This document shows, piece after piece, positions 32,950 to 35,473 of a DNA stretch of 35,473 bases. The notes below the pieces were generated by a model. That model ran no database searches and was not told the DNA's origin. It saw only the letters and a list, made by a program, of their open reading frames with translations. The first letter of the stretch is position 1; every line of letters starts with the position of its first letter. The DNA is from a virus (Duplodnaviria; Heunggongvirae; Uroviricota; Caudoviricetes). The position numbers and the translations under genes are program-made. The stretch is taken from IMG/VR virus record IMGVR_UViG_2850773344_000008; one strand, given 5' to 3'.

Positions 32950-34581
32950 ATAAACCGTGCTGTGTAACTGCTGTGGATCAAATCTGACCACAACTTTTTT
33001 CACTCCGGCATTCATTAATGCCATGTTGTAATAAACGTTTTTCGCGCCTTTAAGGGAGCCGCCAACTTTAAGCGTAAACTCGCCTTTGCGTGAAACGTTC
33101 ACCGCCTCGGCAGGCAGTAACAGCATCCGTTTTTGTTCTTCGGTTGGCTTACGCACAATCGTTCTGGCGTATTCACGCTCGAAAACATCATCAAACGAGA
33201 GTTTGCCCCCGCACATTTCTGTTTCACGGCCTGTTCTGGCATTGAACATCGCCACACCTTCAGCAAAGGTTTTCAGAAACAGCTCTGCATCAACAGCGTG
33301 GTCGCCATAGTTATCAGGTTTTGCCTGCGGATTTGGCCCCGTATATGCGCCAGCCAGTGCCGGATGCTTATCAACGTATTCCTCAAGCCCACCAACACCG
33401 AAAGCACGTTCAACAGGTTTTGCCTGGCCCCAGCCTTTACCGGCAACAACGCTTGTCCAGTGCATTTTCGCACCCATCAGTAAAAACAGTCCTTTTGGAT
33501 CGTCCTCTTTTACCTTAAAGCGGTAGCGATTGGGCGCGCCTCCCGTCAGCCATTTATTCGCAGCACCACGGGTGTTATCAATGGTGATGTGAAAATCCTC
33601 CGGGATACTGTAGCGAGTCACAACATCCATGAACGAGAGGCGAATTGAATCAATGTTCTCGCTCACATCGCAGCGCCAGCCCAGAATTTTTCGGGTTTTC
33701 ACATCCTGCCAGAACCATGTTTTCGGACGGATCACATCACCGTTAAACCAGCGTACAAAGACGTTATGCAGATAACCGTCGCCGTTGATCCACTGCATGG
33801 CGTCCAGGTGTTCCACAGTTCGCTGCTGTGCCGGTATCAGATGCATCAGTGCATGTTCACCTTCACGACAGGCAACAACCATTGCCTCGTCCAGTTGCTG
33901 AATCCGGCGAAAGGCCGTGGCACGGGAGGGAATACTCCAGCCATGCTCGCGGGCTGCCAGTTCCAGACGCTCATAACATTTGCGGAAGGCGGGTTTTTCC
34001 GGTCGCAGATAATCTGCAATCAGAAACTGCCAGGCATCCTCGTCAAATTCACTTTTGTGAACATTGCGACGGGATGCTCCACGTCCATCAACAAGTGCAG
34101 CCGCCCAGTCAGGCTTCGCAAACTTCTGTACCTGGTAATACTTGTCCCGCAAAGTGGATGCGCTGACCTGGTAATGCCCTGCAACGGTCGCAAAAGCCGT
34201 TTTCGTTGAAATCCCCTGGTTCAGCATTTCGTCTGTGGCCTGAATTGAGGGCAACCATTTTTCAGCCAGGCTGCGCTGGGAATCGCTGGCTTTATCCCAT
34301 TTGCTCCATAGTGCCTCACGATCATAATCATGAGCTTCCAGCGTGGGGCGGGCGATTTCAAAACATCCCTGACTGGTTTTAAATTTTCCTTGTTGGAGCA
34401 AAACTTCAGCTCGAGCAATGTTAGGAAGAGAAGATATATGGTATTCGTAAGCAACCCCTCTAATTCCTTCTCTTCTTCTCTTGAGCCATCCTTCTCTCTG
34501 AGCTCTTTTGTGAACCCCCATTAATGAACCAGGTAAACCAGATAAATCCATGCATTCAATTGCTGATATCCACTCTCTCAT
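32950..34581 (-). pseudogene. Mu/D108-like transposase A, 3'-truncated by IS600
   Basis: 544 codons; N-terminal DNA-binding domain, then ...[20 protein letters not shown]... and DDE core region as in MuA; the stop codon is formed by the IS600 terminal bases, so about 120 C-terminal codons are missing. Confidence 0.8.
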
Positions 34582-34810
34582 TGTGATCCCTTAGATATCT
34601 ACTAGGCCAAATTTCCTCAGGTTTCATGTTTAAGGCGTCAGCAATAATGCGTTCACCTTTAGGCCATGGCCTGACTAATGCATTTGCAAGCGTCCCGGTT
34701 GAATAACCTGAACGTCTGGACAATTTTGCCAGAGGGGTTCCTGTTTTTTTGAGGGCCGCAATCACGTCGGCCCGATGCCAATCGTTACTCATCTTTCGCA
34801 CACCAACCAT
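34556..34810 (-). CDS. Ner-like DNA-binding regulator
   Basis: 84 aa with ...[13 protein letters not shown]...[32 protein letters not shown], the Ner/Nlp signature. Confidence 0.75.
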
Positions 34811-34963
34811 ATTGCGTATGATAAAGGGTTACCAAAACAAATAATTCGTCTTGATTATCTGTTTTATACATTACCAAATAAACCAAACCGGTTTATATCA
34901 GTTGATGTGGTTTATTTTGTAATCCATTGATTTTTATATAGATAAATCTGGTAAACTTAGTTT
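34811..34963. promoter_or_regulatory. divergent early promoter/operator region of the Mu-like element
   Basis: 153-bp AT-rich spacer between divergent repressor and ner genes, with repeated TTTAT/ATAAA-type motifs. Confidence 0.4.
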
Positions 34964-35473
34964 ATGAAAAGCGCAAATGAGATAAACCAGTGGATGACAC
35001 CCAAACAAATTACTGAACTGGATGGAATGCCTGGGACAATACAGGGGGTGCATAAACGAGCAAAGAAAGAAGGATGGCCGAAGCGTTCACAAGAAGGGCG
35101 TCGCGGGCCTGGGGTTGAATATATCCCGGCAATACCGGCTATGCAAAAAATTGCTATCGAAGAAATGAATGCTGATACATTGAAAATGTTCTCCCTGTTA
35201 ATCAATAAACTAGGAGAAAATGAAGTCCGAGAGATAGAGCTAAACATGGCTAAATATGGGCTTTCTGGATTAATGCAAGAACGCCCCTCCATCTCCGTTG
35301 ACACCCTATTGGCAACGCTGGGTATTGATCGCCAAACACTACAAACAGCTTTGGCGCTGCATAAATTACCTCCAGAAACTCGCCAAGAGATTTTGTCAAT
35401 GTATGGTGTTCATAAACAGGAAGAGCCTGTAGCTCCTTTGTTGGAACCACAAGATGCGAAAAAAGCCGTATAA
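34964..35473 (+). CDS. Mu-type repressor c-like protein
   Basis: 169 aa; N-terminal domain homologous to the transposase N-terminus in this window (GMPGTIQGVHKRAKKEGW vs [18 protein letters not shown]); C-terminal ...RQEILSMYGVHKQEEPVAPLLEPQDAKKAV; ends at the last base of the window. Confidence 0.7.
   Translation: MKSANEINQWMTPKQITELDGMPGTIQGVHKRAKKEGWPKRSQEGRRGPGVEYIPAIPAMQKIAIEEMNADTLKMFSLLINKLGENEVREIELNMAKYGLSGLMQERPSISVDTLLATLGIDRQTLQTALALHKLPPETRQEILSMYGVHKQEEPVAPLLEPQDAKKAV

Follow-up and report, generated by a model that had tools for sequence, protein, structure and literature searches.

The region 32947–35473 at the right end of IMG/VR virus record IMGVR_UViG_2850773344_000008 (the whole stretch of 35,473 nucleotides is referred to below as the window) is very probably what remains of the left end (attL-c-ner-A′) of a Mu-family transposable prophage, inserted by transposition into the dpiA gene of a Shigella flexneri ancestor. 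The confidence expressed here is a joint one: it covers the assignment of the region as a left-end relic, its membership of a rare immunity group, the deletion of most of the prophage at the insertion sequence IS600, and a later recombination involving IS600. The Mu early layout is formed by three open reading frames (ORFs), with the repressor gene c (34964–35473, plus strand, 169 amino acids, intact) divergent from ner (34556–34792, minus strand, 78 amino acids, intact) and from the truncated transposase gene A′ (32947–34581, minus strand, 544 amino acids). The ner gene overlaps the start of A′ by 26 nucleotides, and a 171-bp intergenic control region (34793–34963) lies between c and ner. A BLAST comparison of Mu-family loci with the window confined the Mu-homologous DNA to 32948–35473 and revealed no MuB-like DNA in the window; nor was the Mu right end TGAAGCGGCGCACGAAAAACGC found there in a search allowing up to three mismatches.

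The product of c, identified from the ORF list, matched the Pfam family HTH_Tnp_Mu_1 (PF02316; E-value 4.5e-12, above the curated cut-off) and the DNA-binding domain of the Mu repressor (PDB 1G4D/1QPM; E-value 2e-10). The protein has an N-terminal Mu-type winged-helix DNA-binding domain, and its C-terminal tail (...PQDAKKAV) is kept across Mu-family repressors. Over 60 N-terminal residues, c and A′ share 40% identity (E-value 8e-17), in agreement with an earlier note on this DNA, which had pointed to a DNA-binding domain common to repressor and transposase. As Mu c does, the protein would bind operators in the intergenic region and hold ner-A′ silent. The ner product matched HTH_35 (PF13693; E-value 4e-29, above the curated cut-off) and the structures of Mu Ner (PDB 1NEQ/1NER; E-value 3.5e-24). 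Its start was taken at MSNDW, which agrees with the Mu Ner alignment and with the annotation of the closest relative; longer calls are possible from upstream ATG codons at 34801 and 34810.

The transposase fragment A′ matched HTH_Tnp_Mu_1 (E-value 1e-42), HTH_Tnp_Mu_2 (3e-48), and DDE_2 (1e-134), all far above the cut-offs, and the match to Mu-transpos_C was partial (profile positions 1–50 of 61). Matches were also obtained to the MuA structures 4FCY, 1BCM/1BCO, 2EZK, 2EZH, and 1TNS. Along the minus strand, the protein comprises subdomain Iα (residues 1–75; 34357–34581; PDB 1TNS), an immunity-specific winged helix that binds the enhancer/operator; subdomains Iβ and Iγ (residues 76–246; 33844–34356; PDB 2EZK and 2EZH; HTH_Tnp_Mu_2), which bind the Mu ends and differ very little from their counterparts in Mu; subdomain IIα with the DDE catalytic fold recognised by DDE_2 (residues 247–489; 33115–33843); and a partial subdomain IIβ (residues 490–544; 32950–33114). 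The catalytic residues D268, D335, and E391 are present and occupy invariant columns in the alignment with relatives; they correspond to D269, D336, and E392 of Mu (numbering from PMC3362531). Overall, A′ is 91% identical to each of the transposases of Mu, D108, SfMu, and PhiR68_1 and 96% identical to that of the prophage of Escherichia coli UMNF18, and the divergence lies nearly all in the first ~75 residues. In the part encoding residues 77–544, 21 of 1404 nucleotides differ from Mu (98.5% nucleotide identity).

Taken together, the ORF layout and the Pfam and PDB matches bear out the earlier reading of the region as a Mu-family left-end early region with divergent c and ner-A. The ORFs did not prove foreign to the family, and the repressor did not lack a DNA-binding fold, since matches of both kinds were obtained throughout. 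Every feature of the family (Muvirus) that could be examined in the window was found apart from completeness, namely the repressor fold with the divergent layout, Ner upstream of A, and the MuA subdomains Iα, Iβ, Iγ, and DDE IIα. A complete transposase followed by MuB is not present: the ORF stops at MuA residue 545, and IS600 and a foreign prophage follow.

The truncation could be placed exactly. Five full-length relatives run 118 residues (CYTLDGRF...) past the last residue of A′, Y544 (...LHSTVY; Y545 in Mu), and the terminal TGA of IS600 (32947–32949, minus strand) serves as the A′ stop codon, which confirms that the gene was cut by this element. The crystallised MuA core 1BCM (MuA 248–574) was covered only to chain position 298 of 327, so that its last 29 residues are lost, and the transpososome construct 4FCY (MuA 77–605) was covered at positions 1–469 of 529. 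The losses therefore comprise the end of the IIβ barrel, the whole of IIIα, and the whole of IIIβ. The earlier note had stated that the catalytic core was kept and that the part contacting MuB and ClpX was lost. The first statement holds for the DDE residues; the core itself, cut at 545, is incomplete, and more has gone than the MuB/ClpX-contact module, which is IIIβ only (PMC3362531). Roles in non-specific DNA binding and structural transitions have been assigned to IIβ and IIIα, and IIIα is intolerant of insertions except at its last residue (PMC3362531). Because the essential IIIα, on which assembly and catalysis depend, and the end of IIβ have been lost besides IIIβ, A′ should be inactive: judging by MuA, it would be able to bind the Mu ends and the enhancer but unable to assemble a transpososome or catalyse transposition.

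The interrupting IS600 (31686–32949, minus strand) has the 1264-bp length, the TG...CA ends, and the orfA/orfB organization expected of this member of the IS3 family. It lacks a 3-bp target duplication, with flanks TAT and ATT in the orientation of the element, which fits recombination or deletion after its insertion. The homology to the Mu family stops at 32948 on one side, and that to the head module of Escherichia phage vB_EcoM-689R2 stops at 31685 on the other. On the far side, a vB_EcoM-689R2/SEN34-like prophage contributes plus-strand genes for the major capsid protein, cement, scaffold, and portal; these are not Mu genes, and their strand is opposite to that expected of Mu late genes. 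One could suppose that IS600 had simply interrupted a Mu-like prophage that was complete in all other respects, in which case the remainder of A, as well as B and the late genes, would lie beyond it. The position of the element inside the A reading frame agrees with this, as do three draft assemblies (L020, positions 1–2105; L021; L022) with contigs that start 3 nucleotides past the A′ break. However, the capsid region on the other flank, the missing duplication, and the lack of any further Mu-like DNA in the window refute a plain insertion here, and we regard it as extremely improbable.

The same three draft contigs, which are labelled as E. coli or unlabelled, carry the A C-terminus, MuB, and kil, and suggest genomes in which a repeat occupies the A′ break site but the downstream early genes survive. 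Another junction was observed in an unrelated sequencing run (L019, positions 1–60), where a foreign end is joined to the A gene of a UMNF18-type prophage 16 nucleotides upstream of the S. flexneri IS600 position. This foreign end, which we take to be that of IS10 from its appearance, may mark a local insertion hot spot, or the proximity may be a coincidence.

Three IS600 copies are present in the window (2611–3874, 15829–17065, and 31686–32949). The middle copy is ~27 nucleotides shorter and is the sole one with a target duplication (CTG/CTG), and the two outer copies are inverted relative to each other and have none. The copy at 31686–32949 was reported as part of a 1266-nucleotide inverted repeat, 100% complementary to 2611–3876; direct comparison of the two 1264-bp copies showed five mismatches. 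The outer copies were considered as reciprocal partners of a single inversion, and this was rejected, since their flanks do not match.

The end of the prophage itself was found outside the window. A public assembly collection has 6687 indexed blocks with the exact c protein, all contigs read among them being S. flexneri-type chromosomes, and the protein occurs in a window-like context on many S. flexneri chromosomes, for example CP000266 (strain 8401). Eight S. flexneri-type chromosomes from NCBI encode an identical c protein, and in each of them the 338 bp after c can be aligned with Mu attL (~96%) up to its last base, ...GAATCAATACA, so that the Mu-like left end predicted just past the right edge of the window is indeed there. 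The next bases in the same eight chromosomes, CTGGGGCAAACG..., belong to the C-terminal part of dpiA, which is followed by dcuC. The insertion splits dpiA (citB) at about codon 114 (L013, positions 10849–11189), and DpiA should be non-functional in S. flexneri genomes with the split gene.

Both junctions were recovered in two IMG/VR contigs, L038 and L040, which encode an identical c protein and share the A′/IS600 junction; their outer IS600 flank is different. These contigs start with dpiB, the dpiA N-terminus, CTGGG, and the Mu right end (TGAAGCGGCGCACG...; TGAAGCGGCGCACGAAAAACGC...), continue with mom, gin with an internal deletion (~380 bp in L038), the invertible G segment broken off within S′, IS600, A′, ner, and c, and end with attL, CTGGG, and the dpiA C-terminus. 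The 5-bp host duplication that the earlier note had proposed looking for is thus CTGGG, seen at both dpiA junctions in L038 and L040 and on the attL side in window-type genomes. In L040, the attL region additionally contains an IS1 (~8380–9150, ~110 bp past the equivalent of the c end) with a 9-bp duplication, GCCTGGTTG.

In L038 and L040, IS600 bridges an internal deletion of ~29 kb. We infer that an IS600-associated event would have removed this DNA, with one breakpoint at A codon 545 and the other in the tail-fibre S′ segment, and that the arrangement in the two contigs would represent an earlier state of the relic. In the window lineage, the IS600 at 31686–32949 would then have recombined again with another IS600, probably by inversion, and in this way the left end would have come to lie against the head genes of an unrelated ipaH-carrying lambdoid prophage. 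This order of events would account for the finding that, depending on the genome, a single A′/IS600 junction has one or the other of two outer flanks. The island in the S. flexneri loci is bordered by pgl on one side and by dpiA′/dcuC on the other; ybhC lies a few kb from pgl there, and in E. coli strain 1105 a distance of more than 100 kb separates ybhC from dpiA.

The 8.3-kb element of L038 and L040 resembles laboratory mini-Mu and other Mu deletion derivatives in possessing both Mu ends, the enhancer/operator region, c, ner, and the 5-bp duplication and in lacking the late genes. It differs from them in having arisen naturally via IS600 and in having no working transposase of its own; in window-type genomes, moreover, the ends are no longer adjacent. 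With an A′ devoid of the end of IIβ, IIIα, and IIIβ, no adjacent MuB, and no Mu right end in the window, the element cannot move alone. It is an ordinary defective prophage fragment, in which at most the repressor may still be functional.

Several points weigh against this account. No window-type genome was found to contain the reciprocal product of the later recombination (dpiB, dpiA′, the Mu right end, IS600, and prophage tail genes). Protein searches with the C-terminal 118 residues of MuA returned fragments from E. coli-labelled or metagenome contigs only; those with MuB gave no Shigella-named match among the matches carrying a source name; and those with the N-terminal 115 residues of DpiA gave frameshift variants of intact dpiA loci only. 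The right-hand part may have been lost, or it may be present and have been missed by these searches. In addition, an inactive A′ and an active c are both presumed from likeness to MuA and Mu c. The A′ core on the S. flexneri branch has six non-synonymous and five synonymous private changes, compared with 20 and 67 in the intact relatives, a hint of relaxed constraint that did not reach significance (Fisher p = 0.06; tests p = 0.06–0.12).

The immunity module of the relic, judged by sequence identity, is a separate group, distinct from those of Mu, D108/SfMu, and PhiR68_1. The c protein is 38% identical to that of Mu, 32% to D108, 31% to SfMu, 36% to PhiR68_1, and 85% to UMNF18, and for Ner the values are 64% (Mu), 56% (D108), 56% (SfMu), 53% (PhiR68_1), and 99% (UMNF18). 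Subdomain Iα of A′ shows 45% identity to Mu, 48% to D108, and 84% to UMNF18. The suggestion that the N-terminal domains look more D108-like was therefore not upheld: c as a whole, its DNA-binding domain (36% to Mu versus 30% to D108), and Ner are all closer to Mu, and Iα gives a tie. Membership of the Mu immunity group is not indicated either, given the 36% identity of the c DNA-binding domain. Outside the A′ core, the DNA match to Mu is limited to 109 nucleotides at the 3′ end of c, and no match was obtained for ner, the control region, or the remainder of c.

Relative to Mu (AF083977), the relic shows the same attL-c-ner-A order and divergent transcription, the similar attL and A core, the DDE triad, the common N-terminal fold of repressor and transposase, and the KKAV tail of the repressor. 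It differs in the sequences of c, Ner, and Iα, in the transposase cut at 545 without B, and in a C-terminal extension of Ner that overlaps the start of A. With c, Ner, and Iα identities of 38, 64, and 45%, the relic is presumably heteroimmune to Mu.

The nearest relatives are the full-length prophage of E. coli UMNF18 (NZ_AGTD01000001, next to yphB) and the IMG/VR contigs L030–L032, with c proteins 85–88% identical to that of the relic. Residues 6–53 of c are invariant in all five sequences (the S. flexneri relic, UMNF18, and L030–L032), which also share a 78-residue Ner overlapping A and a matching Iα, and can be assigned to one UMNF18-type immunity group. Unlike the relic, these relatives are full-length, with a 662-residue A followed by B, a more D108-like attL, and 9 bp of the control region that the relic has lost; in the two of the three IMG/VR contigs that were checked, the 662-residue A is followed by a 312-residue ORF at the MuB position. 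The immunity type is rare. It was found in one of 5426 complete E. coli genomes and, in a one-genome-per-species collection, in two genomes only, both with the S. flexneri arrangement; in the phage collection, no isolated phage had a c protein more than 36% identical.

SfMu is the sole described Mu-like phage of S. flexneri, and a common “remnant of SfMu” was detected by Southern blot in most S. flexneri strains (PMC4406740). An origin of the relic from SfMu or D108, i.e., within the D108-type immunity group, had therefore to be considered. S. flexneri is a host of SfMu (PMC4406740), and among the relatives compared, SfMu has the A core most similar to that of the relic (98.65% nucleotide identity; range for D108 and SfMu, 97.8–98.7%). 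D108 and SfMu belong with the relic to one family at the genus level. However, the core is ~97–99% identical across all members compared and does not discriminate between them. The immunity module tells otherwise: c is 31–32% and Ner 56% identical to the D108 and SfMu proteins, whereas SfMu and D108 share 89% of the repressor and 98% of Ner with each other (PMC4406740). In addition, attL is closest to Mu, not to D108. An SfMu/D108 immunity module is refuted by the c and Ner identities, and we consider descent from either phage very unlikely. The modules of the relic form a mosaic with respect to its neighbours, with attL closest to Mu, the A′ core closest to SfMu and Mu, and the immunity module of the UMNF18 type; the UMNF18 attL itself is partly D108-like. 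In literature searches, no paper was found that describes the relic, its immunity type, the UMNF18 prophage, or the dpiA pseudogene in Shigella.

The c-ner control region should, by analogy with Mu, harbour operators, a transpositional enhancer, and divergent promoters. A 16-nucleotide inverted repeat (34870–34885/34908–34923) lies within it. The motif TTACCARAW has three matches in the 35-kb window, all in this region, with 1.0 expected. It was rejected as an operator motif, as it is not kept in the intact relatives, one copy reading TTATCAAAA and another having been created by a 9-bp deletion. In the alignment, every intact relative has 9 bp at the place of this deletion (34872/3), which is specific to the window type, not the L038 type. 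Between these two types, a 60-bp part of the control region (34832–34891) accounts for five of ~14 difference events. One of the changes converts TTGATA to TTGGTA at a promoter-like site upstream of ner, a weakening of the −35-like site. A small central palindrome varies between copies but stays palindromic (AACCGGTT, AATCGATT, AACTAGTT). These changes may reflect a mutational hot spot or selection.

Such selection would be expected if the relic were a domesticated module, in which c, and perhaps an inactive A′ that still binds the ends, were kept against superinfecting Mu-like phages through immunity or through dominant-negative interference with transpososome assembly; the derived changes in the promoter/operator region would in that case be the outcome of selection for silencing or retuning of ner-A′. 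The intact frames of c and ner and the intact attL, the extreme spread of the exact c protein, the retention in A′ of all DNA-binding subdomains, nearly identical to those of SfMu, and the concentration of inter-lineage differences in the control region, with the TTGATA change among them, are in line with this possibility. Nevertheless, recent clonal descent alone explains the intact c, and the changes lie in an AT-rich quasi-palindrome, an expected mutational hot spot. The only known Mu-like phage of S. flexneri, SfMu, is heteroimmune (31% identity in c). By comparison with Mu, c could give immunity only against phages of its own type, and the rarity of that type among E. coli genomes and isolated phages implies a small benefit. 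An active c would, moreover, repress A′. Retention by selection thus appears unlikely, though less so than the alternatives considered above, and a decaying left-end relic is the reading we prefer.

The window as a whole represents a lambdoid prophage island that carries ipaH and is interrupted by many insertion sequences. At its start, an ipaH gene (1–1812) encodes a 603-residue E3 ubiquitin ligase with LRR and NEL domains and adjoins an oppositely oriented gene that resembles those for tail-fibre assembly. To the left of ipaH, related genomes have pgl and ybhD, and the exact IpaH protein was found in few assemblies only, LM651928 among them. An IS3-family element that looks like IS2 (orfA, 136 amino acids; orfB, 301 amino acids) interrupts the lambdoid prophage with two full copies (5625–6956 and 24587–25918) and a 282-nucleotide fragment (20414–20695). 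A homologue of QueH (epoxyqueuosine reductase), an unusual cargo, is encoded at 11475–12161 in an early/nin-like region of the prophage, with DUF1367 and Q-type antiterminator genes nearby. The head module (26658–31732) consists of genes for the portal, a Mu-F-like head morphogenesis protein, a DUF2213 scaffold/protease, cement, and a PF09950 major capsid protein, together with an 81-residue ORF. It is 95% identical to vB_EcoM-689R2 and ends abruptly at IS600, with no downstream tail genes.

In conclusion, the relic is of little importance beyond annotation, and its interest is modest, residing in a rare immunity module, a natural Mu insertion in dpiA, and stepwise erosion driven by IS600. It documents natural transposition of a Mu-like phage into dpiA, by which a two-component regulator was inactivated in S. 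flexneri, and provides what would be a clear case in which IS600 deleted the greater part of a prophage and later rearranged what remained. It also adds one more immunity type to the Mu family, so far from uncharacterised prophages only, and gives a sequence-level account of at least part of the “SfMu remnant” hybridisation signal in most S. flexneri strains.

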